Notes under the pieces: generated by a model
Databases searched by the model: none
What the model was told of the DNA's origin: nothing
What the model saw: only the letters and a program-made list of their open reading frames with translations
NCBI GenBank assembly: GCA_050952625.1
Contig: JBMNLH010000004.1
Coordinates: forward strand, 256,001 to 320,000
Origin: Bacillota bacterium
Lineage (GTDB): Bacteria > Bacillota > Ch66 > Ch109
Length of the DNA stretch: 64,000 nt
Direction of reading: 5' to 3'
Part shown: one piece after another, positions 34,904 to 55,304 of the stretch
Numbering within the stretch: the stretch's first letter is position 1
How the letters are laid out: every line of letters starts with the position of its first letter
Program-made: the position numbers and the translations under genes

Positions 34904-34931
34904 AACCATTTGGCTGTGACAAACATACTAT
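34904..34931 (+). promoter_or_regulatory. Candidate sigma-K/sigma-E mother-cell promoter of the split RHH gene
   Basis: AACC-N16-CATACTAT versus sigma-K consensus mACm-N16-CATAnnnT. Confidence 0.4.
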
Positions 34932-35043
34932 GTAGAAAAAATACGTTGGTTGACAGGAGAATCCACCACCGGTTTACCTTGACTGGAGGGAAAGTATTAA
35001 CAATCTAACAACCTGGCCTGACGCATCGGAGAGGGGGGGGACC

Positions 35044-35086
35044 GTGGCTACTGAAAAATTTGAACATGTTACTTTTTACCTGACCA
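35044..35086 (+). pseudogene. 5' part of split ribbon-helix-helix (CopG-like) gene, MATEKFEHVTFYLT
   Basis: GTG after GGAGAGGGGGGG; runs into left core; stops at 35091 in the integrated state. Confidence 0.8.
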
Positions 35087-36620
35087 GATAACAATTATTG
35101 CGCAAAATACCGGTGTTGATTCTATAGGTTACCTTAACCACAGGTACCTTGGGGTTTTCCCGACTGGGAAAGACCTCGATTTGATCGACCAACATCTTAA
35201 ATAGATCGTGTTTTACTTCATCCTCAGCCGCATTGATTATCTCTCCGATTTCATCAGCGATATCTTGCAGTTCCATACCCAGGTTAACAGTTTCTTGTTT
35301 TTCCTGTTGCTGTTTTAGCAACTGCTTTTCTCTGTTTTCAAGAGTTTTTAAATCGCGATTCCTTTCTTCGATATTGGAAAGGATATCGCTCTCAGAAACT
35401 ACGCCCTTGGCGAATAGGTCCAATAGTTTCTTTTTCTCCTGGGCCAGGGTTTTTTGGGCCTCTCTAATCTGGTGCAGTTCTTCATCCAGATTTACCGGGT
35501 TCACTGTTTCTTGTTCCAGATATTCAGCTACTTCTTTAGCTAATCTTCGCGGGTTGGCAAAGAAGTTTTTAATTTCATCCCAGATAATATTTTCTATGAT
35601 TTCTGCCGGCAGCCCGGGAGAATTACAAGTTGCATTACCAGGTAGTTTTTTTCGATGGTTGCAGCGATAATAGAAAAATTTGCCCTTATTACACGAGGTT
35701 CCGTTATAAGAACTCCCGCAGATGCCGCATTTTATTAATCCGCGCAGGAGATATTTTTTATAACTACCGGCCGGCTGAGACATAATTTTTCGCTCCTTTG
35801 CGATTTGTTGGGCCTTTTCAAATTCCTGCATTTCTATTATGACCGGAATAGGGATGTTGATCCGTTCTTGCCCGGGTGGTTTATAGGGGTACAGGCCGTT
35901 AGCATAAAATTTTGACTTAAGAATTTTTAGAACCGAATAAGAGCACCAACCGTGTTTCGAGCGAGGCAGATACCAGTCACCCTTAAAAGTAGCTGGAGAT
36001 GGTTTTCTATTGGCGTTCAAATAATCGACAATGGCCTGAAGACCCATTTCATCTTCGTTATAAAGCTTGAAGATTAAGCGAATGATTTCGGCTTGTTCTG
36101 GTGATATTTCAAGCTTTTTATTGTTTATGTAGTAACCAAATGGAATGTTTCCCTGGGGGAAAAAACCGTTACGCGCGTGACGCACCTTGCCTTCTGTAAA
36201 CCGCTGTTTAATTACCGCGCGGTCATAGGCGGCAAAGGTGGAAAACATACTGGCCATCAGCTGACCAGAAGGCTCAAAGTAGTTAAAAGGTTCATTGATT
36301 GAAATGAGGGATACGCCGGCTTTTTTAAAAAGCTGATATATCTCCTGGGCGACAAATTCATCTCTGGCCAGCCGGTCCACTCTTAGGATCAAGACTTGTG
36401 TTATTTTGCCCTCTAAGATGTCCAGGAGCATGCGTGAGCCTTCCGGACGGTCGCGCAAGGGTATAGTACCACTAATGCCGTCATCCTTGAACCAGTTATC
36501 TTCCAGGATCACAATATTCTGACGATCACAGTATTCTTTTATATTTTGGATTTGGGCCTGGATGTTGTCTCCCTTGGCTTGCTCTTCCGTGGAGACCCGG
36601 CAGTAAGCAGCATAGGACAT
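35076..36620 (-). CDS. Large serine recombinase (resolvase + recombinase + zinc ribbon + coiled coil)
   Basis: YCRVSTEEQ catalytic Ser, DDGISGT, DRLAR, PFGY, LLRGLIKCGICG, YYRC; last codons overlap left att core. Confidence 0.95.
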   Translation of the reverse strand: MSYAAYCRVSTEEQAKGDNIQAQIQNIKEYCDRQNIVILEDNWFKDDGISGTIPLRDRPEGSRMLLDILEGKITQVLILRVDRLARDEFVAQEIYQLFKKAGVSLISINEPFNYFEPSGQLMASMFSTFAAYDRAVIKQRFTEGKVRHARNGFFPQGNIPFGYYINNKKLEISPEQAEIIRLIFKLYNEDEMGLQAIVDYLNANRKPSPATFKGDWYLPRSKHGWCSYSVLKILKSKFYANGLYPYKPPGQERINIPIPVIIEMQEFEKAQQIAKERKIMSQPAGSYKKYLLRGLIKCGICGSSYNGTSCNKGKFFYYRCNHRKKLPGNATCNSPGLPAEIIENIIWDEIKNFFANPRRLAKEVAEYLEQETVNPVNLDEELHQIREAQKTLAQEKKKLLDLFAKGVVSESDILSNIEERNRDLKTLENREKQLLKQQQEKQETVNLGMELQDIADEIGEIINAAEDEVKHDLFKMLVDQIEVFPSRENPKVPVVKVTYRINTGILRNNCYLVR

Positions 36621-36868
36621 AGCAGAACCATTCCTTTATTTTTTATCATTTTAACATATTAAAAAACAGTGTCTATTATCTTAGCTGGCTTATTTTAACA
36701 TCCAGCGGAATCCAGTTATTGTAAACAAAGTAAAGCTGATGTAAAATTAAATAAAATTTTAGTAACATATCGATTATTGCATTTGAGAAAAAACCTCAAA
36801 TAGAGTTGTGAGCTATTCCCTTTTGGGGCATAATAGAGTTGTATAGGTAGGTAATAGGGGGTTCTGAA

Positions 36869-38188
36869 ATGCTAATTAATTATTCGTTTTCAAATTTTAG
36901 ATCCTTTAAAAACAGGACATCTCTTTCTATGTTAGCAGGAACACAAACAACTATGAATGAAAATCTAATTAGACAGGATGGTTATCGCATTATTCCATCT
37001 GTTGTTATTTATGGGGCTAATGCAAGTGGTAAGTCAAACATTATTATGTCTCTTGCGGTAATGAAGGAGATTATCTTAGCAGGATCTTTAGAATCCAATG
37101 TTCCGAACCTAAATAATCTTGAGATGTGCCCTTTTGCCCATAGTGATGATAAGAAGGCTATGTCTTTTGAGATAGAGTTCACCAACAAAGGATATCATCT
37201 TATTTATGGTTTTGAGGTTTTGTGCTCATTGTTTAAAAAAGATGTCAGAAGGATTCTTTCCGAAAATTTATCTATTGTAGACAACAAGTCCAAAAAGTCC
37301 AATCAAGTTAAGTTGTTTGCGCGAAATTCCGATGGCGTAATAATAATGAAAGATAAAGAAGCTCTAAATATTATCGAGTTTGATGAGAAACTTCTGGGGG
37401 AATTTGAAAAGAAAATTAATTCTAATCTTGATGATACCGAGCTTTTTCTATCAAGGGCCTTTAAGAGTACCATTAACAATGAACTTGCAGAGGCAGTAAT
37501 TGATTTCTTTAAAGACGAATTGGTTGTAGTTAGCGATTTTACCCTAAAGAAAGCAAATCTAACGTTTTCCCTTGAAGATTTGCCTAATAAAGATTTTTTT
37601 GCTTGGAACAAGATATTAGAAGGATTTGTGAAGATTGCAGACTTTGGGCCACAGAGCATTGCATTTAAATCGAATAAGTCGGACAATGAAAAATCTGCCG
37701 ACATGGAACTAGTCTCCATCTATCGGTATAAGGATAAAAATGCAGTAGTGATTCCAGCAGAATTAATGGAATCAAGAGGGACGCTGAAATTACTCGATTT
37801 TGCTATCCCTTTTGAATCGCTCTTTTCTTCCGGAGGTGTTTTTGTTCTTGATGAATTCGATGCAGCCATTCACCCCGAACTTATTAAAGGCATCATTGCA
37901 TTATTTAATGACCAGACTATCAATAAAAATGGAGCACAGCTAATATTCACCACCCATAACCCGATCTATTTAAACAATAAAATCTTCCGGAGAGACCAGA
38001 TAAGGTTTGTAGAAAAAGACCAGGATACTTTCGAGAGTGTGATATATTCCTTGGCCGACTTTGGTTCAAAGGAAATTCGAAATGACCATAATTACTTGAT
38101 TAATTATTTTAAAGGCAATTATGGAGCATTACCCTTCATCGATTTTTCCAAATTGCTGAGCAAAAGTGCTAGCGAGGAGGAAGAATAA
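36869..38188 (+). CDS. AAA_21-type ATPase, RloA/AbiLi-like
   Basis: NFRSFK, GANASGKSN, ESRGT, LDEFDAAIHP, QLIFTTHN, YFKGNYGA. Confidence 0.82.
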   Translation: MLINYSFSNFRSFKNRTSLSMLAGTQTTMNENLIRQDGYRIIPSVVIYGANASGKSNIIMSLAVMKEIILAGSLESNVPNLNNLEMCPFAHSDDKKAMSFEIEFTNKGYHLIYGFEVLCSLFKKDVRRILSENLSIVDNKSKKSNQVKLFARNSDGVIIMKDKEALNIIEFDEKLLGEFEKKINSNLDDTELFLSRAFKSTINNELAEAVIDFFKDELVVVSDFTLKKANLTFSLEDLPNKDFFAWNKILEGFVKIADFGPQSIAFKSNKSDNEKSADMELVSIYRYKDKNAVVIPAELMESRGTLKLLDFAIPFESLFSSGGVFVLDEFDAAIHPELIKGIIALFNDQTINKNGAQLIFTTHNPIYLNNKIFRRDQIRFVEKDQDTFESVIYSLADFGSKEIRNDHNYLINYFKGNYGALPFIDFSKLLSKSASEEEE

Positions 38189-38794
38189 ATGGCGTTCTAT
38201 CGAAAAAATTATTTTTGTATTTGTGATGGTCAGCAAGAAGAAATGTACCTGGACCATGTGGCTACACTCATAAAAGTTTTTCCAAAGAGGGTTGTAAAAT
38301 TTAATACAACAGTTGGCAATATTGATCTATTAAAGAGGACATATGTGGATTATGATAGAGCAGCGTTTTTTGATCATGATTTTAATGATAATGAATTCCA
38401 AAGAAATATAATACTTTGTAACCAGTTTAATCGACAGAGAGGGAGATCCACATACCATGCGTTTAGCAATGTAAACTTTGATCTATGGCTGATACTTCAT
38501 AAAGAAGAGTTTAATCGACCAGTTTTTAGCAATGATGCTTACCTGCCAGATGTTAGGAGAATTTATGGATTAGGGGCTACGGAAAATATAAAAAATAAAA
38601 GAACAATTAAGAAGATTCTTGATCAGATCACGTTAGAAGACGTTAAGAATGCTATTAGCCGAGCCAACCGGATTCGGGCTGAAAAGATCGATACAGACAA
38701 AAGAATGATCGGACCAACCATTTGTTATCCTAATCCTGATTTTTCGATCCATGAATTCTTAAAGGTAGTTTTAACTGATTGTGGAGAACTATGA
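38189..38794 (+). CDS. RloB/AbiLii-like protein
   Basis: ICDG..EEMY, FDHD, SNVNFDLWLILH, NP; abuts the ATPase stop. Confidence 0.72.
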   Translation: MAFYRKNYFCICDGQQEEMYLDHVATLIKVFPKRVVKFNTTVGNIDLLKRTYVDYDRAAFFDHDFNDNEFQRNIILCNQFNRQRGRSTYHAFSNVNFDLWLILHKEEFNRPVFSNDAYLPDVRRIYGLGATENIKNKRTIKKILDQITLEDVKNAISRANRIRAEKIDTDKRMIGPTICYPNPDFSIHEFLKVVLTDCGEL

Positions 38795-38921
38795 TCTGGA
38801 GAGGTAGTAGATGAACCCGTTCCCTGGAAGGTTACGAACAAGGGAAAAATTCGGTAGGATTATTGGCTTTGATTAGAATAAGGACAGTCAGGTTGGGTTC
38901 TGGGTGAGGGGGGATTTTATA

Positions 38922-39263
38922 ATGATATGGGAAGAAGTGAAAAAAGCATATTCTAATCAGTGGATAATCATCGAGGCTATTGAGGCTCATACAGAAGGGG
39001 ACAAAAGGGTTATTGCTCAAATGACCGTGGTTGATAATTTTCAAGACAATAATAAGGCTTTACTGCACTATTTGCAGTTGCACCGGAAGCATAGGGAGCG
39101 GGAACTCTATGTTGTTCATACTTCCCGTCCAGAATTAGATATAATTGAGCAGAAATCGATTGGAGTCAGGGCTGACATAGCGATTCCTCTTCGGGATCCG
39201 CATGAGTTCTATGACGACTGGGATGATCCGGCGGTGGATGCTAAATATGCTGAAACCTGGTGA
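38922..39263 (+). CDS. Hypothetical protein, possibly chimeric with an antitoxin-like acidic tail
   Basis: RBS GAGGGGG; tail FYDDWDDPAVDAKYAETW overlaps a PemK-like start. Confidence 0.5.
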   Translation: MIWEEVKKAYSNQWIIIEAIEAHTEGDKRVIAQMTVVDNFQDNNKALLHYLQLHRKHRERELYVVHTSRPELDIIEQKSIGVRADIAIPLRDPHEFYDDWDDPAVDAKYAETW

Positions 39264-39300
39264 TGTAGTTGCAAATTACTCAGTTTTAACAACAACATAA
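39247..39300 (+). pseudogene. Possible PemK/MazF toxin 5' remnant (MLKPGDVV...)
   Basis: ATG overlapping upstream gene end; KPGDVV resembles a PemK N-terminus; stops after 17 codons. Confidence 0.35.
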
Positions 39301-39314
39301 TACTCCAAAGGGAG

Positions 39315-39641
39315 TTGATTAAGTTGTCCAAGGAAGAACTTTATCGCTTAGTCGCCCGGCTTCCAGAGCAAAACATAGCGCGAGCAAAAAAGTGTCTAGA
39401 AAGACTAGTAGAAAGGATGCCCCCTGAAAGCGCAGCTGTGCCAAGACTAGGCAATATTCCTTTCTATATCGACCCGCTTTGTCCGGAATGTGGTGCGGCT
39501 TTAGTGTTAGCAGATCCACTTAATAACCCAGATGTAAATGAAAATGAAATCTGGCACGACGAATTTATTTGTCCATCCTGCCGTGACGGTATTTACATGG
39601 ATTGGCCAGAAAGCGAAATTAAATCCATTATTGAGGAATAA
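39315..39641 (+). CDS. Hypothetical zinc-ribbon protein
   Basis: CPECG and CPSC motifs. Confidence 0.55.
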   Translation: MIKLSKEELYRLVARLPEQNIARAKKCLERLVERMPPESAAVPRLGNIPFYIDPLCPECGAALVLADPLNNPDVNENEIWHDEFICPSCRDGIYMDWPESEIKSIIEE

Positions 39642-39815
39642 AACAAGGAAAAGTATTTGACTAAACCCGGTAAAGAGTGTTGATTACCGGGTTTTTATTT
39701 TTATTCGGGTTTCCAATCGGTTGTTTAGTCAAAATACATACTTTAAGAGTTTAAACTCGGCGTTTAACGTCGGGTTTTCTTTATTTATAAGCAACACAAA
39801 AAGGAGGGCAACACA

Positions 39816-40997
39816 TTGTTATTGTTTAATAAAACACCGTTAACCGTAAACTGCGAATTGGCTATGTTGATTGGACTCAATGAGTCTATAGTTGTTCAGC
39901 AGATTCATTATTGGATTAGAAAAAATCAAGAAAATAACATTAATTATTACGATGGGTACTATTGGACATACAATACATACGCTGACTGGCAAAAGCAATT
40001 TCCTTTTTGGTGCGAGAGAACGATCAAAAGGATTTTTCTATCTTTAGAGAGGAAAAACATTTTAATTTCAGATAATTTTAATCAGATGAAAAGAGACCGT
40101 ACAAAATGGTACCGAATCAATTATGAAGCATTGAATCAATTATATTTACAGGCAACGGAAAAACCGCATAACAGCGAATCGGGCCAAAATGGATCGACGG
40201 GTTGGAAACCCCGAAAACTGCGTGGCCACGCATCTGAACAAATTGGTACCATGCATCAGATCAATTTTACCCCATCCATCGGGACAAATTGTCACTATGG
40301 AACGGGACAAGTTGACCCGATGGGTGGGGACAAGTTGTCCCCACCATTACCAGAGACTAACACAGAGATTACTACAGAGACTAACAACAACAACATAACC
40401 GGGACCCGGTACCGGGTCCCGGAAGAGAAAACTAAAAATCCGATCGATGATGATGTTGTTGAACCAAGGGGTAACTCTACTTTAGACAATGTAATAAATT
40501 CCCAATCTGTAAAAACAGCAGCTGCAAAAGAGCAGCATCCTCAGCATTCGTTAACTGATTATCCAAAACTGCATTGTAAAAAAATATCTCCTTTTTCCGA
40601 TCGAGCTATGCAAAGCCGAGAGGATGAACAATCGGAAGAAATAAGGGAATTCTGGCCACAACTAGCTCAAGAAATAAACAGGGTCAGGAGTTTTTTGCGT
40701 GATAATGGGATCCGGCTTGAAGTGAATCGCAAGGCGGATAATGCCTGTTATGAACTCGCGAAATATTCTAACGAGCAGCTTGCTGTACTGGCTCAGGAGC
40801 TTCTGGCCAGAGAGGCGAAAGGCGAGATATTAAATGCTTCTGGATTATTGGTTTCTGCGCCTGGCGTTATAGCGTATATCCTAAAAGGGCCGTTCAATAA
40901 CAGTTTTAACCACGCAAGAAGTTTTTTTGATGGCAGAGGAAGGGAGGCTCAGATCAAAGCAAAAGAGGATAAATATCGCGATATTTATGTTACGTAA
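39816..40997 (+). CDS. Phage/ICE-type replication initiator
   Basis: IGLNESIVVQQIHYW...WTYNT...QFPFW...TKWYRINYE winged-helix N-terminus; central iteron region. Confidence 0.8.
   Translation: MLLFNKTPLTVNCELAMLIGLNESIVVQQIHYWIRKNQENNINYYDGYYWTYNTYADWQKQFPFWCERTIKRIFLSLERKNILISDNFNQMKRDRTKWYRINYEALNQLYLQATEKPHNSESGQNGSTGWKPRKLRGHASEQIGTMHQINFTPSIGTNCHYGTGQVDPMGGDKLSPPLPETNTEITTETNNNNITGTRYRVPEEKTKNPIDDDVVEPRGNSTLDNVINSQSVKTAAAKEQHPQHSLTDYPKLHCKKISPFSDRAMQSREDEQSEEIREFWPQLAQEINRVRSFLRDNGIRLEVNRKADNACYELAKYSNEQLAVLAQELLAREAKGEILNASGLLVSAPGVIAYILKGPFNNSFNHARSFFDGRGREAQIKAKEDKYRDIYVT
40231..40422. repeat. Putative replication origin inside rep: five 23-bp-period iterons and a perfect 24-bp palindrome
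   Basis: GGGACAARTTG-like units at 40235, 40258, 40281, 40304, 40327; CCGGGACCCGGTACCGGGTCCCGG at 40399-40422. Confidence 0.65.
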
Positions 40998-41119
40998 GAC
41001 TTTTTTATGTTTAAGGAAAACCAAATCTTGTAAATTGAGTAGAATTAGTATACACTAAAAGCAAGATAACCGAATAGGGCCATAACAGAGCGAAACAAAA
41101 AGATAGGAGTGGTAATTTA

Positions 41120-41512
41120 ATGCCTGGGCCGGCTGAAGAGTGGTTAACTCAATCAGCTTATGATTTAGACACTGCCAAAGCGATGCTCAAAACTGAGCGT
41201 TATATATACGTTGTATTCATGTGTCACTTAGCACTCGAAAAAGCGTTGAAAGGTTTATTTACTGTGGTCACCAACGGGCCACCTCCAAGGACACATAACT
41301 TGGTCCAACTTGCCAAAGTAACGCAACCTCGGCTTAATAAAGAACAGAATGCTTTTCTAGTAACGATTAATACTTTAAGTGTGACTACCCGCTACCCTGA
41401 TGATTTAAGTAAAGCGTTGAAAGAATTTAACCGGGAACAGGTGGAAAACTTCGTTGGCATGGCAGAAGAGGTGATTAGATGCATCCGGAAAGATCCCAGA
41501 TTGAGCAAATAA
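41120..41512 (+). CDS. HEPN domain protein (HEPN/MNT toxin-antitoxin)
   Basis: DLDTAK, FMCHLALEKALKG, PPRTHNL, TRYP. Confidence 0.85.
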   Translation: MPGPAEEWLTQSAYDLDTAKAMLKTERYIYVVFMCHLALEKALKGLFTVVTNGPPPRTHNLVQLAKVTQPRLNKEQNAFLVTINTLSVTTRYPDDLSKALKEFNREQVENFVGMAEEVIRCIRKDPRLSK

Positions 41513-41814
41513 TACAACGGTTTGGAGAAGTCTTAAAAAGCAAGGGTATTATTCCAGAGAATATTATACTCTTTGGCTCTTATGCAAAGGGAACCGCATC
41601 AGAATACAGCGATATTGATTTAGTGATAGTTTCTCAGGATTTTGCGGGTCTTTCCCTAATCGAAAGATGTACTATTATGGGCCAAGCTATTGCTGAAATT
41701 ATGGAACCAATTGAGCCCCTTGCTTATACGCCAGAAGAGTTTGTTAGACTTTCCCCACATAGTGTTATAGGCTCCGTGATGAATGACCCGATGGAGCATC
41801 TGAAAATATATTAA
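41479..41814 (+). CDS. Minimal nucleotidyltransferase (MNT)
   Basis: ILFGSYAKG...SDIDL, YTPEEF. Confidence 0.85.
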   Translation: MHPERSQIEQIIQRFGEVLKSKGIIPENIILFGSYAKGTASEYSDIDLVIVSQDFAGLSLIERCTIMGQAIAEIMEPIEPLAYTPEEFVRLSPHSVIGSVMNDPMEHLKIY

Positions 41815-42029
41815 ATACTCGTGAAAAATTTAATACCTTGCGGACTCAGGGACCCGGTAGAGTATTACAATTCTATTGGGTTTTTTATTGTTTTAAGGTT
41901 GTAGTTTGTAACAATCATGCATTTATTTAAGAGAAAGGAGGAATGATTAGTGCCTAAGAAAAGTTTCGCCCTAACCCGCTTTTCTCCTGAAAATTCCATC
42001 GGATTTAGGATTTTGCTTTTTAAGGCAGG

Positions 42030-42112
42030 ATAAGGGGCGCATACACACACCTGGCAAAGCCAGGTGGGGTGCGGGTTTGAGCGGGATGCACTTGTCTTGA
42101 ACGGGATGCACA
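42030..42112. other. Candidate origin of transfer
   Basis: Hairpin CACCTGGC-AAA-GCCAGGTG next to minus-strand GTATGCGCCCCTT (MOBQ nic-like); CGGGATGCAC twice; upstream of RHH gene. Confidence 0.45.
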
Positions 42113-42170
42113 AATGATGCTCCTATTTTATGGTAGTTTTTTATGAAGGGAGGGAGTTATTTCAGGTAAT

Positions 42171-42575
42171 ATGAGCAATAAATTCAAAAAAATGACCATT
42201 CATATTGACAATGAATCTTATCAACTATTGGTTACTTTGGCGGATAAACGAGGTGAATCTATATCAAAAATTGTTCGTCGGATTCTATATGAAAATCTAG
42301 AATCGCAAGTGGCACTAGAAGCCCAAGACGCACTTTTGTCTATCACGCGAAAAGCAGTTGCGCGGGAGCTGCGTATCGTGGAAGATCGTCTGGCCTCCCT
42401 TTCTGCAAAAGCGGCAATTACTTCTGCCTCGACAGAAAACTTAGTTTCTTATGTTCTTAAATTGCTCCATGAGCCAAACATTCCTGGGGTCAGGGACGCT
42501 TGCAGAAAAAGAGGGGTGGCATATGTACGAGAACCACTTAATCAGATAATGCAAGCTTACTCCTCCGAAGAATGA
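42171..42575 (+). CDS. Ribbon-helix-helix protein, probable relaxosome accessory factor
   Basis: MTIHID...LADKRGESISKIVRRIL N-terminal RHH plus helical C-terminus. Confidence 0.6.
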   Translation: MSNKFKKMTIHIDNESYQLLVTLADKRGESISKIVRRILYENLESQVALEAQDALLSITRKAVARELRIVEDRLASLSAKAAITSASTENLVSYVLKLLHEPNIPGVRDACRKRGVAYVREPLNQIMQAYSSEE

Positions 42576-42785
42576 TCGATCGATATCTCTATGGCTTGGC
42601 CCGTTGAAGAGATTATGCCGGAAGAAGCAGCGGGAAATAGACGGGGCACGAGGCGAAAACCTGGAATTTAAACTAATCCCATTAAAAGCTTATTGGCGAG
42701 TTAAGTCCGGTTGGGTTTTAAAAAACTTAGTCGGGCTTTATTTTTTGTAGTCTGATTATCTCAATTATTGCAAAGGAAGTGAAAC

Positions 42786-43007
42786 ATGATGCAAGGGATG
42801 TTTTTGGAAAATGTAGTTGCAGAAAGACTAGGAGAACAAAAATATGTTTTATCGTTAAAAGCATTCGGCCCTAAAGACAGCGTTGAAATTGTTGCAAAAG
42901 ATGAAAAAAGCGGAAATGAGTTGTTTGTTATGACTGATCAAGAACCAGAGGAAACTAGAAAGAAATTAATTCAATGGATTAACGAAATCGAGATTATTCA
43001 ATATTGA
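42786..43007 (+). CDS. Hypothetical protein
   Basis: 73-aa ORF with AAGGAAG RBS. Confidence 0.5.
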   Translation: MMQGMFLENVVAERLGEQKYVLSLKAFGPKDSVEIVAKDEKSGNELFVMTDQEPEETRKKLIQWINEIEIIQY

Positions 43008-43167
43008 GTAAGCAAGCAGCTGGTCGGAAGAACTTGCTACAAGTGAGGCGAATGGCCTCTTAAACTGGGACAACTGATAAGGCTGGGAATTGTTGTCCAG
43101 TACTCGGCATCAGCACCTAGCACTGGAGACCGGCAGAATGTAGTATTACTGTTTCGAAGTTCGATTA

Positions 43168-44016: not shown

Positions 44017-44069
44017 ACATATCCCCTAATAAATTAATCTTCTTGGCCATCTCTTATTGTACCCTCCTT

Positions 44070-44175: not shown

Positions 44176-44177
44176 GG

Positions 44178-44722: not shown

Positions 44723-44730
44723 TGACAGTT

Positions 44731-45240: not shown

Positions 45241-45293
45241 GGATTAATCCCCCTTTTTGACCAGGATAGGTCCGTGCTTTTTCACAGTTAAAG

Positions 45294-47764: not shown

Positions 47765-48286
47765 TTAGAAAATGGACGCAAAAATAATCCTTCAACAAAG
47801 ACTTTGCAAAAAATAGCCAAAGCCCTAGGGGTTTCAGTAACTGAATTGTTCAATGAACTTAATACAGGGGCTACTGGTGCGGATACATAATAGTTTCTAC
47901 TTTATTATAAAGCAGGCAACCAAACTTTACCAGCAATTCCAAGCGAATATGTAATCCTCGGGATCGACATCAGAGAACAGCAGCATGGCCACCCGACCAC
48001 ATTGATGCTGTTGACTAAAGTGCGATCTTTTTTTACTTTGAGCTGGGGTTAAGCAGTTAAACAAAAGCTAGCTCTAAAAAGCTGTTGGTTTATCTGATTG
48101 ATACCGGCAGCACCTGAACGTTGAAAACTTAATAAAGGGTTTGAATAGGACTGACACTCCACGGTTATCCTCGAAAACCGGCCGCTCGTTAGGGCTTAAG
48201 AGAAATTCAGCCTGGGGTTTTGGACCCCAATAACGCGCGTTACAATTTTATTTTATCTTCCCGAAAGATTATAAAGGGGGTATTTT

Positions 48287-48595
48287 GTGGCGGTTATTAT
48301 TTGCACAAAACCCCAAACGGGAAAATACTACAAATACCAGGATAAGGAAGATTTGACTGTTAGTGATATTAAGAACTTGGCTTTTGTATACGCTAGTAGT
48401 TGCTTAAGCGATAAAGAAGCCATTGTCGAGTTGGTATACACGAAAACAAGATTAATGGGAATAAGTTTGCTGGCTGAATATCTTATACTATTTAATGTCA
48501 CTTTCGATTTCTTTTTTTGGGAAAGCAAACTACAAAAGCTTTTTGAAGAAAAAAAGAAGATCAGTAAAAGGCGGCGATCCCAACCCGCTAAATAA
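48287..48595 (+). CDS. Hypothetical protein
   Basis: 102-aa ORF with AAAGGGGG RBS. Confidence 0.5.
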   Translation: MAVIICTKPQTGKYYKYQDKEDLTVSDIKNLAFVYASSCLSDKEAIVELVYTKTRLMGISLLAEYLILFNVTFDFFFWESKLQKLFEEKKKISKRRRSQPAK

Positions 48596-48657
48596 CGATG
48601 GAAATAAAAATACAGGAAGCTCATTTAACGATATTCGTTAATTGGCCTTATGGAATG

Positions 48658-48738
48658 CAAGTTAAAAGGATAAAACAGAAGAGAGAAAGTCTGACAAAAC
48701 ACCCGGAAAAATGGGGCATGGCGAAGCACGCCCAAAAT
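48658..48738 (+). repeat. 81-bp imperfect direct repeat, copy 2
   Basis: Matches 44642-44722. Confidence 0.85.
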
Positions 48739-48971
48739 CGCAACAGAATTTGAACCTTGAGAACTTAATAGAGGGTTAGCCTGGTTTCCTCGAAAACCTG
48801 AGCCGCCTGCTGTGGCGTACTGGGCCTCATTAAGCCCCTGCTTGTTTATAATTGAACATTAAAGCAGAAGAGAATACTCCGCCTGGGGTTTTAACCCTAA
48901 ACAGTATGCGTTACAATCTTGGTGTATTATTATGGTCCTCAGTTTTAGCTGAGGGCTTTTTTATTTAGTAA

Positions 48972-50510
48972 CTCAACTTTCGCAGTTGATTGATTAATAT
49001 ACTTCTGGTAATTTGAAATTTTGGAACAAAATAAAACAAAGCACCATATTTTCCTGGCATAATGAAGGTAACCACACCCAAAATTATGAGAGGATGGTGC
49101 TTTGCTTGACCTCCATTTTACCAGATCTTTACGAAAAAATCCAAGTTCAATCCAGAATAGCTCAGTTCATAAAAAGGTTTAATGTTCTTAGATTAATGAA
49201 AGAATCCGGATTTAAAAAGGCAAAAGGGGTTTCCTTAGTTAGCATTATCAAATTTCTAGTATCTTTGGTCTTTACCCATAAGAATTTGTTCCGAACTATG
49301 CAGCCTGGCAATGATCCAATGCCTTTTGCCAAAGATACTACATATCGGTTCCTAAACGATCCTCGTTCGGATTGGCGTCTACTGCAATTAAAATTGGGTG
49401 CAGGAATAATTAAACAGGATCTAAATTCATTAACTTCGGAAAAACGCGTCCGTGCTTTAGTTATCGACGATAGTTCCTATTATCGAGATAGAAGCAAGAA
49501 GGTAGAATTGCTTGCCCGAGTTAAGGACCACGTCACTGGTCGATACTTTAAGGGTTTTCGTAAACTAACTGCAGGATGGACTGACGGTGCCACTTTTATC
49601 CCTTTGGCCTTTTCTCTACTGAGTTCAACAAAAGCAGAAAATCGTCTTTATGAGCAGGGACCCCGGGTTCCTAAAGGTTCTCCAGGGGAACTACGACGTA
49701 AGGAAGCCGTGCAGTCAGGAACCTCATTATTATTGGATTTATTGGACCAGATTTTAGAACACGTTCAGGAGTTTCAATATGTTCTTTTTGACAGTTGGTT
49801 TAGCTGGCCGGATGTAATTAAAGGAGTAAAAGAACGTCAACGTGATGTGATTTGCATGCTTAAGGACATGCCGAAAATTAGTTATACCTATCAGGGCCAA
49901 ACCTTCCGTTTATCGGAATTATACAAAGTGGCTGCTAAACAATGTCAGAAGAAATCGTACATTGCGTCTGTGGTTGTTGATTACTACGAAGTTCCAGTAC
50001 GGATTGTCTTCGTACGTAATCGTAACAGCAGCCATAAACGTGAATGGCTGGCTTTATTGTCAACCAATTTAGAGGTAACTGAAGAAGAAATTATTCGGAT
50101 CTACGGCCTTCGTTGGGACATTGAAGTTTACTTCAAGATGTGTAAATCGTTTTTACGCTTAGCAAAAGAATTTCAGTCCCGTACCTATGATACTATGTTT
50201 GCTCACACTGCCATTGTTTCTATCCGCTACATGATATTAGCCATTGAGAACCGTGAAGGCAAAGATAGCCGAGCTAACGGAGAACTTTTTTACCTGTTTT
50301 GCGATGAGGTGGCAGATCTTGATTTTACTCAGGCTTTTTTGTATATTCTAGATTTGTTTACAAAGACACTCCGAGAAAATCTTTTTCTGTCTGACGCTAT
50401 GGTTAATCAGATCTTATCTTCATTTATGGATAAGCTGCCCAGTTTTATTAAAAATCGGTTGCGGCTTAATGCTACTTAAAAGAGTGGATTTGTCAACTGC
50501 GAAAGTTGAG
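48972..50510 (+). mobile_element. Insertion sequence, IS4/IS701-like DDE
   Basis: Perfect 18-bp IR CTCAACTTTCGCAGTTGA; 7-bp target duplication TTAGTAA (48965-48971, 50511-50517). Confidence 0.9.
49013..50479 (+). CDS. DDE transposase (IS4-like YREK signature)
   Basis: VIDDS, LFDSWF, YGLRWDIEVYFK; start probably further downstream. Confidence 0.85.
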   Translation: MKFWNKIKQSTIFSWHNEGNHTQNYERMVLCLTSILPDLYEKIQVQSRIAQFIKRFNVLRLMKESGFKKAKGVSLVSIIKFLVSLVFTHKNLFRTMQPGNDPMPFAKDTTYRFLNDPRSDWRLLQLKLGAGIIKQDLNSLTSEKRVRALVIDDSSYYRDRSKKVELLARVKDHVTGRYFKGFRKLTAGWTDGATFIPLAFSLLSSTKAENRLYEQGPRVPKGSPGELRRKEAVQSGTSLLLDLLDQILEHVQEFQYVLFDSWFSWPDVIKGVKERQRDVICMLKDMPKISYTYQGQTFRLSELYKVAAKQCQKKSYIASVVVDYYEVPVRIVFVRNRNSSHKREWLALLSTNLEVTEEEIIRIYGLRWDIEVYFKMCKSFLRLAKEFQSRTYDTMFAHTAIVSIRYMILAIENREGKDSRANGELFYLFCDEVADLDFTQAFLYILDLFTKTLRENLFLSDAMVNQILSSFMDKLPSFIKNRLRLNAT

Positions 50511-50666
50511 TTAGTAAATTTAAAAATTATTAATAAACATTGTCAGGAATCAATAGCTGGGAGGACATCTTTTTAATTATGTATAAACAGGTTACAAAGG
50601 GGTGATTCCGGAATAGAAACATAGTTTAGTAGTTTAGATTTAAAATGGATTCGAGGAGGAAAAAAC

Positions 50667-51590
50667 ATGCGAAAATTAATTGTTCTACTACTCACTTTAA
50701 TATTTATGATGGTTTCCGTACCAGCCTTTGCCGCTGATATTGCTGATGTTAAGGTAACCGTCAATGGGGTAGAGGTTTATTTCCCGGATCAGAAACCGTA
50801 CATAGACAAAAACCTTGACAGAACCTATGTCCCTTTACGATTTGTCACTGATTACCTGGGCGGAACCTCCGAATGGGATGGAGCCAACAGTACCGCGAAG
50901 ATTAAACGGAATGGGATTCGGATTGAAATGCCCACCTGGTCGATCAGCCCGGTAGTCAACGGAGAACAGAAAACGATGGATGCCCCGGCTGTTTTGGTTA
51001 ATGACCGCACCTGCGTTCCGCTGCGGTTTGTTTCGGAATTCATGGGGGCCAATGTTGAGTGGATTCCGGCGAACTGGGAAGCTCGGATCACTGATGCGAA
51101 GGCCCCAAAAGCGAAAGACCCGGACGTTAAGCGAATGGAGACTCTTTTTGGGGTTGAGTTGAAAGAGAGGGAGAACGATAAGGGCTATTATGAATACCAT
51201 GAATGCGTAGCCCTGAAAAGCAAGGATTACTATCGGAGTTATCTTTCGGTTGCGGTGAATACCCGTGAGGACTATAGATATATTGAAGTTGGGGCAGCCT
51301 GGCCACACAACGGGGTTGTTGGATTGGGTTACGTTCATCCCAGCAAAGTTAACATTGACCTCAGCCCCCTGGAAAAAGTGGTGGAAGAATTGATCCCCGA
51401 TTACCGGAAAAAGGATCAGATTTTGGCCCACGCTTACAAGGTAGTGGAAAAAAGCCAACAGCTTGTGGAAGAGGGTCAAGAAAAAGAGAAAATTCTTAAG
51501 AGAATATTTGAAGATGTACCAGGATATAGCGTCGTAGTCGTCGGACAGGAAGCTTTCAGCTACGCCATGATCAGATTCGTTAAAAATTAG
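50667..51590 (+). CDS. Secreted protein with copper amine oxidase N-terminal (stalk) domain
   Basis: Signal peptide AFA-A, FPDQKPYI, RTYVPLRFV and RTCVPLRFVSE. Confidence 0.8.
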   Translation: MRKLIVLLLTLIFMMVSVPAFAADIADVKVTVNGVEVYFPDQKPYIDKNLDRTYVPLRFVTDYLGGTSEWDGANSTAKIKRNGIRIEMPTWSISPVVNGEQKTMDAPAVLVNDRTCVPLRFVSEFMGANVEWIPANWEARITDAKAPKAKDPDVKRMETLFGVELKERENDKGYYEYHECVALKSKDYYRSYLSVAVNTREDYRYIEVGAAWPHNGVVGLGYVHPSKVNIDLSPLEKVVEELIPDYRKKDQILAHAYKVVEKSQQLVEEGQEKEKILKRIFEDVPGYSVVVVGQEAFSYAMIRFVKN

Positions 51591-51597
51591 AGAAAGG

Positions 51598-52203
51598 ATG
51601 GCTGATTTGAAAAACAAAAAAATTTTAACTGGCTTAATTGCCCTGACTTTACTATCAGGGCTTCTCTTTATCCTTTATCATCAGGTTTTTCAGAGAGATT
51701 ATCTAGAGGCACCTTCCCAAGTCGTTAAACCAGCAGATGTTCAGACGATAGAGAATACCCTGGGAATAACAATGACTGGAGAGGGTGATTCTTGGCGGTA
51801 TAGTCTTCAAAAGGAGGAAGTGTTAAATTCACCCTGGCAAAGTTATTTGGAGATTTACCAAAGCGATGGAGTTGTTAAATTGATGCTGAATTATCCTTAT
51901 AACAGCCCAGGTTTAAAGGAAGTAGCGGTAGAACTAAACCCAATGAATAAAATTCTGAATAGTTACTTCCCTGAAGACGCAGAGCTAACCGCTTCTATTA
52001 TGGATTCCATCCAGCAGTCGATAGCAAAAATGCAGGAAAGCAACGGCTTTGATAAACCAGAGAGCACTCATTTTACTGCCAATTCCAAAGGTATTGTTGT
52101 TCAAACCTTAAAAGATTATCCGAATTTAGTAACTCTAGTTATCTACGAGAGAGAGGAGGGGGTCGAATGGGTCGATGCTTTAAATCAACGGGAGCTGTCT
52201 TGA
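51598..52203 (+). CDS. Membrane-anchored hypothetical protein
   Basis: Single N-terminal TM helix; operonic overlap with neighbours. Confidence 0.6.
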   Translation: MADLKNKKILTGLIALTLLSGLLFILYHQVFQRDYLEAPSQVVKPADVQTIENTLGITMTGEGDSWRYSLQKEEVLNSPWQSYLEIYQSDGVVKLMLNYPYNSPGLKEVAVELNPMNKILNSYFPEDAELTASIMDSIQQSIAKMQESNGFDKPESTHFTANSKGIVVQTLKDYPNLVTLVIYEREEGVEWVDALNQRELS

Positions 52204-54101
52204 TGATTGTGGTTATGCTTTTAACCTCATCGACTTTCAGCCTGGCCAACAACGACAGTAAAATTGATCTGCTTTTAAGGACCGTTTATGGGACAGAGGA
52301 ATGTCCTCATCGTGGTTATCTTGAACACCCTGACAACGGAAAACTTCTATACGCTCGGCTAGACAGCAACGAAAACCTTGTTTTCGGCACCCCTTATGAT
52401 GTGCCGGGCAACAACTGGAGGCCCACCACCGACCCGGTTCACCCTGGCGGTTGGGCAGAACGTAATCCAGACGTGGCTAGGCAATCTGATTGGGGAAAAG
52501 AACCCGCTTTTTTAGGTCACTCTTCTACTTTTGAAAAATTCTCTAACGACTGGTATCCGCCGAGTAGAGAACATAGGAATCTGGGCACCTTAAATTTAAT
52601 TAAGGAGCCTTGGAATAAATCAGGCATTGATTGTCAAGGAAATAACACCAATTTAAACCTTGCTGAACTAGAAAAAAAAGCCATCGTTGACGCAATTAAA
52701 AACTACGGAGCCGCCCTTTCATTGCAGTATAACGGCAAAGACAAGGGCTCTTTTGAGAATAACCCCCTGCTTACAAACGGCAATTTTGAAGATAACGTTT
52801 TCGACTACTTCTTGGTTTTATCCAAACCCTACCCAGGCGTTTCTGGTACGGTTCGTTACTGGCATAAATACAATGGCATTACCTATTATGACACTATCAC
52901 CGTCCACTGGAGCCAGGGACCGGACTTCTACCTTGAAAACCTCAACCCTAACGTATACGACAATGGAGGGCAACCTCTTTACCCGGGCAAGACTTACCAA
53001 GGTAAAGTTATAGCCAAAGTTCAACGCGAAACAGGTAGTTACATGGATCCGATTACCCAAAAGTTTCTTGATGTTTCCAAGCTTGAAGATAAACGGCCAA
53101 CCTTCAACAAAATCCCGATCTACGTCACTATTGACGGTGCTTATTTAAATCCTACTAACATTCGATCTACCCAAACCGGCTTAGGCATTAACGGTGGGGT
53201 GGCCTACCTGGACCCGATGGAGATAGATCGGGAGTACCCGATAGATTTTTTCTTCACTGTGCCCAGCGACTACAATAAAACAGCTATTGAAATCAAGGTG
53301 GTCATTAATACCTTTGAAGCTGATGGTTTTATACCCCCAGGCATAGCACCTAACGGAGCTGAACAATTTAATTTGGCTAACAACATGATCACAGTCAGCG
53401 TTCCCGTAGGTGATGAAAGCAAAGGCCCTGAAGACGAGGTTAAATTACCCACAGAGGATCTTTCGGTCAAAAGTATGACGGTCTTGGATGCTGCAAGCGA
53501 TCAACAAGTAACGAGCGTTAAAGCTAATCAACCCCTAAAGATACAAGCTGTCTTTAATTCAACTTTTCCCGAGGCAGGATGGGTTAAACTGCGGCTTTAT
53601 AAACACCAGGTTGAATACAACAAATTAGATAAAGTAGGCGACACAGTTATTGCTCATATGGATGCTAACGGCACCCTAAACCAAGAATGGCCTGGCATAA
53701 CTATTGGTACAGGTGAATATGCCTTTGTTGTTTCAATCAACGCCATTAATAAGGGCAACGATCCAAATACTAATTGGGAAATAGAAAAATACACTACGGA
53801 TACAGGGGAGGAATTCAAAGAGGCTGACCATGACACTCCCAACGAAAGTAACAACAAATTAGCCTACTCATTAACGGGGAGTGATGCGCCACCCAAAGAA
53901 CCTCAGCCGGTGGTACAAACTCAATCAGTTTGGTTTCCACCCAAGACATGGAAGCTTGTTGAGGATTACAGAACAGAGACAATAGATATATATGGCTGGC
54001 GAGAGGTTGAATTTATCAAAGATCCTAGCAAAGCTAGAATTATTACGAGAATGGTTCCAAATGTTGAAAAGGAGAAATCAGAAGAACCGGAAGAGTGGTA
54101 A
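52167..54101 (+). CDS. Large secreted protein with beta-rich (Ig/CARDB-like) C-terminal domains
   Basis: Signal peptide, DFYLENL/DLSVKSM...NN motifs; function unknown. Confidence 0.6.
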   Translation: MGRCFKSTGAVLMIVVMLLTSSTFSLANNDSKIDLLLRTVYGTEECPHRGYLEHPDNGKLLYARLDSNENLVFGTPYDVPGNNWRPTTDPVHPGGWAERNPDVARQSDWGKEPAFLGHSSTFEKFSNDWYPPSREHRNLGTLNLIKEPWNKSGIDCQGNNTNLNLAELEKKAIVDAIKNYGAALSLQYNGKDKGSFENNPLLTNGNFEDNVFDYFLVLSKPYPGVSGTVRYWHKYNGITYYDTITVHWSQGPDFYLENLNPNVYDNGGQPLYPGKTYQGKVIAKVQRETGSYMDPITQKFLDVSKLEDKRPTFNKIPIYVTIDGAYLNPTNIRSTQTGLGINGGVAYLDPMEIDREYPIDFFFTVPSDYNKTAIEIKVVINTFEADGFIPPGIAPNGAEQFNLANNMITVSVPVGDESKGPEDEVKLPTEDLSVKSMTVLDAASDQQVTSVKANQPLKIQAVFNSTFPEAGWVKLRLYKHQVEYNKLDKVGDTVIAHMDANGTLNQEWPGITIGTGEYAFVVSINAINKGNDPNTNWEIEKYTTDTGEEFKEADHDTPNESNNKLAYSLTGSDAPPKEPQPVVQTQSVWFPPKTWKLVEDYRTETIDIYGWREVEFIKDPSKARIITRMVPNVEKEKSEEPEEW

Positions 54102-54407
54102 AAAAACAAGTGCCTGGCAGTGTTTTTCATAAAGCAAATCAATAAGAGTTAGATTTATTTCTCGAACAAGGATAAGGCGTTATTAACCGAGCCCGGTAGA
54201 GCATCACAGCTCTATCGGGTTATTAATTTGAATAGCACCACAATAATTAATCCCGAACAATATGTGATATATCATCCGGCTTATGCTCTTTTCCCCACGG
54301 CGAATCAAGGATAAAGGCGATGAAGGTTCAATGATTCTAAAATTAGGGGGGTGATTGAACGCTTGTTAAAGCATATAAATTACAAAAGACATCAGGGGGA
54401 ATTCCCT

Positions 54408-54584
54408 ATGAAAATAAAAAAGCCTATCAGAATGTATTATCAAGAGCCTGAGCCTGGGCCAAAAGATGAGGAGGTATTAAACGAACTAGCTAGATATATT
54501 GCAGAAATAATTAAACGAAAACATAGAGTAATTTCGCCTGTTGGTGTAGCTCTTCAAGCTGATCAACCCGGTCAAGAAAGCTGA
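54408..54584 (+). CDS. Small protein, candidate recombination directionality factor
   Basis: 58 aa, AGGGGG RBS, near right att; role is inference only. Confidence 0.4.
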   Translation: MKIKKPIRMYYQEPEPGPKDEEVLNELARYIAEIIKRKHRVISPVGVALQADQPGQES

Positions 54585-54660
54585 TCGACAACCAAATGTT
54601 GTAAAAAAATAAAGTCTATTATACAATTAAATAAAAAGAAATCTTTTATTAGTAGCCTGG

Positions 54661-54729
54661 ATGATTACCGCTTATTATCCTGATCCAGAAGAATGGCAGG
54701 AAGATTTAAAAACAAGGAGAGGTAATTAA
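54661..54729 (+). pseudogene. 3' remnant of a DUF4258-type toxin gene
   Basis: ITAYYPDPEEWQEDLKTRR resembles the DUF4258 C-terminus; directly precedes YgiT-type finger. Confidence 0.55.
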
Positions 54730-54730
54730 T

Positions 54731-54961
54731 ATGAATTGTGTTGCTTGTAAAGCGAATTTAAGTCAGGGAATGATTAATCATATCGTTGATGTAGAGGGGC
54801 AGATCATTATTATTAAAAACGTACCAGCCCAGGTATGCTCTCAGTGTGGAGAATATTATCTTGAACATCAGGTGGCTATTAATTTAGAACACATGATTGA
54901 AGACTCAAAAAAGACCCGAGCTGAAGTGAGTATAATTAACTACTTCGACCGGGTAGCCTAA
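54731..54961 (+). CDS. YgiT-type zinc finger / MqsA-like antitoxin
   Basis: MNCVACK...IIIKNVPAQVCSQCGEYY. Confidence 0.8.
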   Translation: MNCVACKANLSQGMINHIVDVEGQIIIIKNVPAQVCSQCGEYYLEHQVAINLEHMIEDSKKTRAEVSIINYFDRVA

Positions 54962-55000
54962 ATAGCCATGCAGGGAAGGAAGAGCCACCGGCAATATGAC

Positions 55001-55177
55001 TCAAGACATCCTATTCGTCACAATATAGATTCTCTTCCCGACATAACCCCCTTTATACTTACCCTGGCCAAAAGAAGAACGTATCATATCCGGGGATTGT
55101 CCAATTGCTTTTCCCAGAGAAACCGTGCTGTGCAAGAAGTAGGAACGGTCTATTTGAAATTTGCGCAGAGATTGATG
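55001..55177 (-). other. Detached 58-codon C-terminal extension of the recombinase (in frame only on the excised circle)
   Basis: Reading frame continues from ...YLVR across attP into HQSLRKF...VTNRMS-stop. Confidence 0.7.
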
Positions 55178-55178
55178 T

Positions 55179-55304
55179 CTGACCAAAAAGCAGGTAGAAA
55201 AAATAAAGGTCCTGGCGGAAGAGCAGCAGATATCAAGGAGTGCCCTGGTGCGAATAATAATCACCGACTACCTATCGAGAAATACCAAGCCTAAATTACG
55301 GTAG
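55179..55304 (+). pseudogene. 3' part of split RHH gene, LTKKQVEKIKVLAEEQQISRSALVRIIITDYL...
   Basis: In frame with 35044 half via shared core; in-frame TGA at 55173 means no alternative start. Confidence 0.82.

Follow-up and report, generated by a model that had tools for sequence, protein, structure and literature searches.

A serine-recombinase island of conjugative descent splits a ribbon-helix-helix gene next to spoIIR in a Bacillota genome and may be excised during sporulation

RESULTS

A recombinase-bearing insert splits a 53-codon gene

In a 64,000-nucleotide stretch of DNA (the window) from the Bacillota bacterium assembly GCA_050952625.1 (contig JBMNLH010000004.1, positions 256,001 to 320,000), a 53-codon gene for a ribbon-helix-helix (RHH) protein of the CopG type is interrupted after codon 13/14 by a 20,092-bp insert (35087-55178) with the gene for a large serine recombinase (LSR) at its left end. 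An earlier sequence-only reading of this DNA had described a serine-recombinase element splitting an RHH gene beside spoIIR, and that description, of a gene that is real and conserved, is borne out by the reading of the junctions, by intact orthologs and by the LSR at the left junction. In what follows G000 is the window's own genome, G001 a genome of the same genus, G004 one of another genus in the same family and G182 a complete genome from a second family in which the gene has orthologs; L-numbers are fetched loci or metagenome contigs and X-numbers public sequencing runs. The features at and around the two junctions are as follows.

33955-34902, plus strand: patatin-like phospholipase gene, the upstream neighbour (Pfam Patatin, E = 6.1e-40)
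34905-34932, plus strand: mother-cell-type promoter-like site of the RHH gene (AC, 17 nt, then CATACTATG)
35044-35091, plus strand: RHH 5' fragment, 14 native codons followed by R and a stop from element DNA
35076-36620, minus strand: LSR gene, 514 aa when integrated; the last codons, L V R and the stop, cross the core into host DNA
35080-35086: common core CTGACCA of the left attachment site (attL), with the likely crossover dinucleotide AC at 35083-35084
35087-55178: inserted element, 20,092 bp, a decayed integrative conjugative element (ICE) or mobilizable island
36648-36745, minus strand: two sigma-70-like promoter matches 5' of the LSR gene (10/12 positions each, one with a TG extension)
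55004-55180, minus strand: LSR tail codons, 59 codons in phase across the junction, the C-terminal tail in the circular form
55179-55185: common core CTGACCA of the right attachment site (attR), the same 7 bp as at attL
55179-55304, plus strand: RHH 3' fragment, 41 codons and a stop
55548-56336, plus strand: spoIIR, the downstream neighbour (TIGR02837, 187.4 bits against a cut-off of 151.9)

The frame that starts with GTG at 35044 reads VATEKFEHVTFYLTR in translation and ends at a TAA stop (35089-35091), while the frame from 55179 reads LTKKQVEKIKVLAEEQQISRSALVRIIITDYLSRNTKPKLR to its stop at 55302-55304 and has an in-frame TGA just 5' of it (55173-55175). Neither half is therefore viable alone, as had been claimed. 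Re-translation of both junctions likewise reproduced the 20,099-bp spacing between the two 7-bp cores and the joined 53-aa RHH reading. In the integrated state, the RHH promoter can give just a 15-residue peptide. Comparison with intact orthologs shows that precise joining of the two halves at CTGACCA would rebuild the full gene. The G+C content is 0.34-0.45 within 35001-55000 and mostly 0.44-0.53 in the flanks.

Conservation of the interrupted gene

A search with the 3' piece gave matches in 6 of 41 related genomes, and with an intact ortholog as query (P0001, from G003) the class gave matches in 5 of its 7 genomes and a phylum-wide sample of 401 genomes gave them in 24. A clear ortholog (E <= 1e-15) is present in 17 genomes, with 4 of the 5 genomes of the window's family and 10 of the 11 of the second family having one; the proteins of this second family are labelled Syntrophomonas, Thermosyntropha or Syntrophomonadaceae in their source records. 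Fifteen of the 17 copies are uninterrupted: the joined protein put together in the sequence-only reading has intact homologs in G003, G005, G002 and 12 further genomes (53-55 aa, with the same N- and C-terminal parts). In a protein database search, all 116 proteins at E <= 1e-5 were named just ‘CopG family’ or similar. P0001 scores 32.3 bits against Pfam RHH_1 (PF01402), for which the gathering cut-off is 20.5, and two more orthologs score 26.1 and 32.0.

At 13 of the 15 intact ortholog loci, the patatin-like gene is the immediate 5' neighbour of the RHH gene, and spoIIR falls within the ~1.5 kb fetched on the 3' side at 9 of the 15. The element therefore occupies a core chromosomal gene, within the conserved order veg, patatin, RHH, spoIIR, ispE. 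When an intact metagenome locus (L065) is aligned to the window, the match falls into two blocks, interrupted exactly at 35086 and 55182. Compared with this intact copy over 48 codons, the split one of G000 shows 21 synonymous changes and a single non-synonymous change, the counts being 18 and 3 between the split copies of G000 and G004, and 17 and 6 for intact-versus-intact pairs. Both RHH halves, the ribosome-binding site and the promoter are undamaged, and split copies are no worse than intact pairs.

A scan of metagenome contigs with a degenerate N-terminus pattern yielded 61 RHH loci, comprising 57 intact copies, two that run off their contig and two that are interrupted (L084 and L117). 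In the same-genus genome G001 (78% complete), neither part of the RHH gene was found, nor a close LSR or an ispE match; the assembly lacks this region and is hence uninformative.

Recombinase and attachment sites

The LSR matches the Pfam families Resolvase (5.8e-30), Recombinase (5.4e-11) and Zn_ribbon_recom (2e-15), and has a YCRVSTEEQ motif with the catalytic serine. The element therefore shows the features by which LSR integrases are recognized: a catalytic serine domain, a Recombinase domain, a zinc ribbon and a dyad attP with a short core. Rejoining its ends produces a ~50-bp imperfect inverted repeat centred on AC (35083-35084 / 55182-55183). The arms of this inferred attP are complementary at 18 of 25 positions in G000 and 19 of 25 in G004, whereas random centres in the window give 6.3 +/- 2.2, with values of at least 17 in 5e-5 of 20,000 trials. 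Host-side (attB) arms are less symmetric (11/25 and 14/25). The outer boxes of attP, TTTGCGCA at 55160-55167 and TGCGCAAA at 35099-35106, each lie 14 nt from the centre. The junctions of G004 have just TGAC (4 bp) in common, compared with the 7-bp core in G000. Such an anatomy is that of attP and attB sites used by an LSR, with AC as the likely point of crossover.

The reading frame of the recombinase gene extends across the attachment site. In all three elements, the LSR ends in NNCYLV, then R or K, then a stop, where the core itself supplies the L-V-R codons and the stop comes from host DNA. Of the six frames at the other junction, the 59-codon tail frame alone stays open in both G000 and G004; 38 of the 59 residues are identical and the stop is in the same place. 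The 157 bp adjoining attR (55022-55178) are 78% identical to G004, a conservation that we attribute to the LSR tail being encoded there. Integration would shorten the LSR from ~572 aa in the circle to 514 aa. No protein with the 59-residue tail fused to a long LSR was found in the database, which is weak evidence, and our literature search gave nothing on an LSR gene spanning attP. Word patterns searched among species-representative genomes identified close relatives of the LSR in G004 only.

The promoter of the RHH gene

The sigma-K consensus is AC-N17-CATAnnnTA, for which 1.27 chance matches are expected in the whole window, counting both strands. The sequence-only reading had placed a sigma-E/K-type promoter 5' of the RHH gene, and the motif is indeed present, at 34905-34932. 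AC-N17-CATAnnnT occurs within 180 nt 5' of all 17 RHH orthologs, 12 of them with the strict TA ending, and the sequence around it is not conserved. The same AC-N17-CATA layout is seen at the sigK promoters of G000, G003, G004, G005 and G182 (5/5 examined). In G000, the -10 regions of the RHH gene and sigK are identical at 12 of 13 positions, and the pattern CATA[CT]TATGTAGA has just two occurrences in the 2.9-Mb genome, at these two genes; as the pattern was derived from those sites, this shows their likeness and is not a test. The motif is also present upstream of dpaA, while spoIVA differs in having an ATA-type -35. A simple sigma-70 scan found no sigma-70-like site on the RHH strand between 34900 and 35044. 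G000 encodes spoIIR, spoIVA, dpaA and sporulation sigma genes; the yabG family was not found in this genome. We consider that the RHH gene is probably transcribed in the mother cell.

Two other sites in G000, the only others in the genome, show AC-N17/18-CATAnnAT[AG]TAG. They are located at C1:478266-478297 and C1:629769-629799, one of them 27 nt 5' of a 62-aa coiled-coil-like open reading frame (ORF) and the other 212 nt 5' of a RelA/SpoT-like gene. These may be further members of a regulon with RHH/sigK-like promoters.

Gene content of the element

Between the recombinase gene and the right junction, the element carries the following features.

36869-38794, plus strand: AbiL-type defence pair (PADLOC AbiLi 1.4e-77, AbiLii/RloB 4.4e-11; Pfam AAA_21, RloB)
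38904-39263, plus strand: candidate defence protein, PDC-M08A-like (PADLOC 2.5e-33)
39816-40997, plus strand: DnaD-like replication initiator (PHROGs phrog_6493, 4e-38)
41120-41814, plus strand: HEPN / nucleotidyltransferase pair (Pfam HEPN 5.5e-22, NTP_transf_2 5.7e-11)
41922-42170, plus strand: conserved non-coding stretch, 82% DNA identity with G004, with a hairpin and two CGGGATGCAC repeats
42171-42575, plus strand: 134-aa protein (RHH-134), 86% identical to its G004 counterpart, in which an RHH at the N-terminus is followed by long helices
43168-45936: regulatory module with a 282-aa regulator (minus strand), a 68-aa Cro-like helix-turn-helix (HTH) protein (44178-44384), an HTH_3 repressor (45294-45608, minus strand) and a 65-aa HTH protein
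45893-47764, plus strand: insertion sequence (IS) copy, transposase at 46009-47700
49013-50479, plus strand: second DDE transposase (Pfam DDE_5 1.5e-15)
50667-54101, plus strand: three cargo genes of unassigned role, for a Cu_amine_oxidN1-domain protein, a 201-aa protein and a 644-aa protein

PHROGs matches in the element are confined to the integrase, HTH regulators and the DnaD-like replication initiator, with no virion genes among them. The sequence-only reading had called the element ‘skin-like’; in the sense of a defective prophage this did not hold, and we rejected it because virion genes are lacking and the sister element in G004 is conjugative. No homologs of the relaxase, coupling protein or secretion ATPase were found in the window or the rest of G000, nor was a conjugation helper found in this genome. 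The set that defines an ICE (relaxase, coupling protein and type IV secretion) is thus missing from the G000 element and complete in its G004 sister. As the element has lost its transfer genes yet remains homologous to that of G004, it is best described as a decayed descendant of a conjugative element. Judged by its genes, it is not prophage-like and, in G000, no longer a conjugative element. It may also be a mobilizable element, in that it keeps the conserved hairpin-and-repeat region and RHH-134. We infer that the non-coding stretch at 41922-42170 is oriT-like; the element retains its recombination module, together with a candidate oriT and the putative accessory protein.

The divergent regulatory region at 44070-44180, between the genes of the 282-aa regulator and the 68-aa Cro-like protein, contains a TTGACT-18-TATACT promoter, with ATTGTTAATAAACAA present twice, and resembles a switch belonging to the element itself. 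The window's only exact AC-N17-CATAnnnTA falls here, at 44130-44157 and 5' of the 68-aa HTH gene. We considered whether it might drive a directionality factor during sporulation and rejected this, the site being the sigma-70-type promoter just described, with its two repeated operators. Copies of the IS elsewhere in G000 are 100% identical on C7 and C8, 99.9% on C4 and ~95-96% on C1, C3 and C4; an active host IS family has entered the island. An Rfam scan of 33000-57000 gave no match. Far outside the element, the G+C content dips to 0.379 over 1 kb at 7001-8000, with surroundings of ~0.5.

Related elements at the same codon

In G004, the RHH gene is interrupted at the codon hit in G000, and the LSR of the element responsible is 76% identical to the G000 enzyme. 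This element is a complete ICE with a MobL relaxase, coupling protein, pilin, TrbL, PrgI, VirB4-type ATPase and M23 hydrolase. The two elements share only three blocks of DNA, at 35017-36656 (attL and the LSR gene), 41922-42572 and 55022-55178. Apart from the LSR, RHH-134 is the sole element gene common to both, and its G004 counterpart lies immediately 5' of the MobL relaxase gene. One member of the RHH-134 family has a NikA-like Pfam domain. The predicted structure of RHH-134 (pLDDT 78.5) consists of an RHH followed by long helices, for which a fold search (E >= 0.3) and a PDB profile search gave just N-terminal matches of the Arc/CopG/ParG type. A 71-aa zinc-ribbon ORF beside the LSR in G004 has no counterpart in G000.

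The two interrupted metagenome loci, L084 and L117, are identical in sequence and belong to a host gene of the Syntrophomonadaceae type. The RHH gene breaks there after the same codon as in G000, and the sequence past the break is the 3' end of an LSR gene whose product is 41% identical to the window's over 207 aa, with a recognizably conserved element-side arm. The same codon has therefore been hit by three diverged elements, which indicates that this LSR lineage has stayed with one target despite deep divergence and differences in host family. Shared vertical inheritance is not the favoured origin of the insertions in G000 and G004: their proteins outpace host similarity, and the gene is uninterrupted in a genus (g2) that is equally distant.

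At the right junction of G004 (L005 715-948, G004:C78; P0043), an element-derived frame runs in phase into the 3' part of the RHH gene. The resulting hybrid of 68-77 aa has a new N-terminus (…CTVWYLT) that mimics the lost beta-strand, is named CopG family protein at NCBI and is found on 7 contigs. The matching frame in G000 carries stops (55140 and 55173), and the element there supplies no working RHH replacement.

The left junction in public sequencing runs

The left junction is present in 16 runs (at least half of the sampled words) from 14 studies, 7 of these runs being possibly of the source sample. Contigs of X13, X15 and X16, which are DNA runs from three studies, cross attL with no differences, so that this junction is no assembly artefact of one dataset. 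In the metatranscriptome X17, a contig in veg (33481-33801) has a depth of 72, and a low-depth contig (35100-35357) lies in the 3' end of the LSR gene, where strand and DNA carry-over leave its origin ambiguous.

Rearrangements of sigK outside the window

The sigK gene of G000 is also split (L051, G000:C1:963000-972000), with residues 1-151 on the plus strand and residues 141-235 found 4 kb away on the minus strand.

L051 6218-6670, plus strand: sigK 5' half
L051 3028-4599, minus strand: second LSR (523 aa), between the sigK halves
L051 2212-1928, minus strand: sigK 3' half

G001 has an intact sigK with no insert, on a contig that matches the G000 region in three blocks. By this comparison, the G000 segment with the sigK promoter and 5' half has been inverted where it stands, and extra DNA of 3.7 kb and 0.42 kb lies on either side of it. 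An inversion of ~4.4 kb (L051 2208-6648), not a deletion, would restore the gene; we found no report in the literature of sigK being restored by inversion. It is possible that the inverted arrangement is an assembly error.

In G003 (C52:88975-91472; L059, L062) and G004 (C74, C183; L060, L061), sigK is split near residue 112-116, a position different from that in G000, by small LSR elements in direct orientation. The G003 insert of ~1.8 kb is essentially the recombinase gene alone. G005 and G182 have an intact sigK. G182 also carries, ~24 kb upstream of its intact gene (L052, C1:613868-614524), an extra sigK promoter with the first ~110 codons (L063, C1:589174-589503), the promoter being nearly identical; this copy may be the trace of a past insertion or duplication.

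DISCUSSION

A mobile island of ICE descent has entered a conserved RHH gene at codon 13/14 through the action of its own LSR, and recombination between attL and attR would restore that gene exactly. We are very nearly certain of integration and its reversibility. RNA polymerase carrying sigma-E or sigma-K would transcribe the RHH gene in the mother cell, where, in a terminally differentiated cell, the LSR and a directionality factor would remove the island and rebuild the gene. The split would be tolerated because the mother cell regains the gene through excision, with the island being kept in the germ line, as for skin, SPbeta and gin. The change from a 514-aa integrated LSR to a circular form of ~572 aa may help set the direction of recombination or its expression. 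Developmentally timed excision of the island seems to us a plausible proposal that stops a little short of being probable, and the whole chain, from insertion through excision in the mother cell, could well be right while not quite reaching the point where we would call it likely.

Several observations were counted toward programmed excision. The transfer genes have been lost, yet the LSR, its tail codons, both att sites and RHH-134 are kept. The insertion wrecks a well-conserved gene, yet the halves of that gene, its ribosome-binding site and its promoter are intact. The splitting of sigK by LSR elements in G000, G003 and G004 was taken as a precedent, and the left junction persists in 16 runs from 14 studies.

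The strongest competitor is a plain parasitic insertion, in which the RHH gene is a mere attachment site that has been knocked out and the element excises for transfer only, unrelated to sporulation. We regard this as a serious possibility, if on the doubtful side, and much of what weighs against programmed excision speaks for it. A complete conjugation module stands behind the same LSR in G004, and a full conjugative element with site specificity and horizontal transfer explains the shared site without any developmental role. The element proteins of G000 and G004 (LSR 76% and RHH-134 86% identical) are more alike than the host proteins (GlmU 73%, KsgA 68%, IspE 63%), and the shared site is thus attributed to transfer and site specificity, not common descent. 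The LSR gene carries two sigma-70-like promoters of the housekeeping type and has no AC-N16-18-CATA motif upstream, and a motif scan found no sigma-E/K-like site upstream of the LSR or RHH-134 genes or across the G004 element. This last absence is weak evidence, because the LSRs that split sigK in G000 and G003 have no obvious sigma-E/K motif either. The element also has a repressor/Cro module like those of phages and ICEs, complete with sigma-70 promoter and operators. Most RHH copies are uninterrupted (57 of the 59 informative metagenome loci and 15 of the 17 ortholog-bearing genomes), with interrupted ones in the minority (2/59 and 2/17). Programmed excision is further weakened in that no directionality factor was identified in the element, and neither an excised junction nor a loose end at 35086/35087 is seen in the low-depth contigs of X13, X15 and X16, which drop rare forms. 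The promoter reading depends on the sigma-K consensus, and the -10 of the Syntrophomonadaceae-type orthologs also contains TATAAT. The organism is a putative spore-former, judged by its genes. What a parasitic insertion explains poorly is that the target, strongly conserved in two families (10/11 and 4/5 genomes), is destroyed at codon 14 with no replacement in G000; that G000, with neither transfer genes nor a helper, retains an intact recombination module and an undecayed split gene; and that the tie of the LSR lineage to this codon is old (41% identity).

It is also conceivable, if quite improbable, that the island is a fixed remnant, unable to excise because, for example, its directionality factor was lost with the conjugation genes, and that the RHH gene is a young pseudogene. 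The loss of all conjugation genes, the presence of IS insertions, the lack of an excised form in the contigs and the lack of a supported candidate for the directionality factor are in keeping with such a fate. The LSR frame and catalytic motif are nevertheless intact, attP retains its arms and each junction its core, no stop interrupts the tail codons, and the RHH halves, ribosome-binding site and promoter are undamaged. An assembly artefact or chimeric contig, for which the nine-contig assembly and its metagenome-type source could be cited, has practically no chance of being the explanation: it is refuted for the left junction by the contigs of three other runs from three studies, and the same architecture occurs in G004 and in L084/L117.

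Excision of the island to rebuild a mother-cell gene would add a new target to the known sporulation rearrangements, namely an unstudied small DNA-binding protein with a sigK-like promoter, conserved near spoIIR in Syntrophomonadaceae and relatives, and this RHH protein is a candidate late mother-cell regulator. The carrier would be new in kind as well, being a conjugative element along with a decayed descendant of one, and so would the host group, the uncultured syntrophs of anaerobic digesters. The LSR and its att sites would be a natural pair in which the C-terminus of the enzyme is tied to the integration state, which bears on directionality control in serine integrases. On a more far-reaching proposal, a lineage of conjugative elements has become specialized for the RHH regulator in the mother cells of syntrophic spore-formers and acts there as a developmental intervening element with a state-sensing LSR that helps set direction, in a genome whose sigK is rebuilt by a 4.4-kb inversion. 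We think this unlikely; if true, two mother-cell genes would be gated by two different DNA rearrangements in one genome, and the island would be the first intervening element of conjugative rather than phage origin, with a new target. If excision is unrelated to sporulation, the finding is an ordinary site-specific island in a small gene.

Comparison with known systems

To our knowledge, published sporulation rearrangements involve a handful of targets, with inserts that are prophage-derived except for gin, and nearly all are from cultured Bacilli and Clostridia. The claim of the sequence-only reading that its target lies outside the known cases agrees with our literature search, as the RHH gene is not among the published targets found (sigK, spoVFB, spoVR, spsM, gerE, yabG and, as a phage site, spoVK). 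We also found no natural conjugative element described as a sporulation intervening element; PMC6957869, as far as the part considered goes, concerns engineered swaps.

Sporulation intervening elements that have been tested excise in the mother cell, according to passages of PMC4191935, PMC5499854, PMC5595907, PMC5025042 and PMC10747680, and the type of target in G000 fits this class. In skin of sigK (Bacillus subtilis; skinCd of Clostridioides difficile, with CD1231 and CD1234), as here, an LSR-bearing insert splits a gene that precise excision rebuilds. A section of PMC5025042 describes the C. difficile recombinase as constitutive, with timing set by a small directionality factor under sigma-E and SpoIIID, and such a constitutive recombinase would fit the housekeeping-type promoters of the LSR in G000. 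The differences are that the target of skin is a sigma factor and not a 53-aa RHH regulator, that skin has a prophage and not a conjugative origin, and that its excision and factor are known.

The gin element is described in part of PMC5595907 as a non-prophage insert with a serine recombinase in gerE of B. cereus ATCC 10987, involving GirC and GirX. It resembles the present case in its target, a very small gene whose product is a DNA-binding regulator acting late in the mother cell. In contrast to gin, a minimal element with experimentally shown excision, the island in G000 is 20 kb long with defence cargo and a conjugative sister, and is known from sequence alone. The SPbeta prophage in spsM (SprA, SprB) is presented in portions of PMC4191935 and PMC5499854 as a fully mobile element that doubles as a sporulation intervening element. 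This gives a precedent for the conjugative element of G004 possibly serving both roles, although SPbeta is a phage, and SprB has a known sporulation promoter whereas none was found in the G000 and G004 elements.

Conjugative and mobilizable elements that integrate through an LSR include Tn5397 with TndX and SCCmec with Ccr, and the best NCBIfam neighbour of the window's LSR is SCCmec Ccr. These elements likewise have an LSR at one end, insert site-specifically in a gene and form a circular intermediate, and the G004 element adds the relaxase, coupling protein and VirB4-type ATPase. The G000 element differs from the Tn5397 type in lacking transfer genes, in a target with a sporulation-type promoter and in an LSR frame that crosses attP. 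The fdxN element of heterocyst-forming cyanobacteria, with XisF, is a further case in which developmental excision by an LSR rebuilds a gene in a terminally differentiated cell, in another phylum and developmental programme. The XisF model matches the G000 LSR at E = 4.4e-32 (111.6 bits), far under the family cut-off of 375. In the integration-dependent immunity of some mycobacteriophages, attP lies inside a gene and integration shortens its product. That system shares with the present one an att site in a coding frame and different C-termini in the integrated and free forms; it differs in that the affected gene encodes a repressor and the enzymes are tyrosine integrases, while here the serine recombinase gene itself is affected. 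Set beside these systems, the element works like an LSR integrative element, and it may also work like skin, SPbeta or gin.

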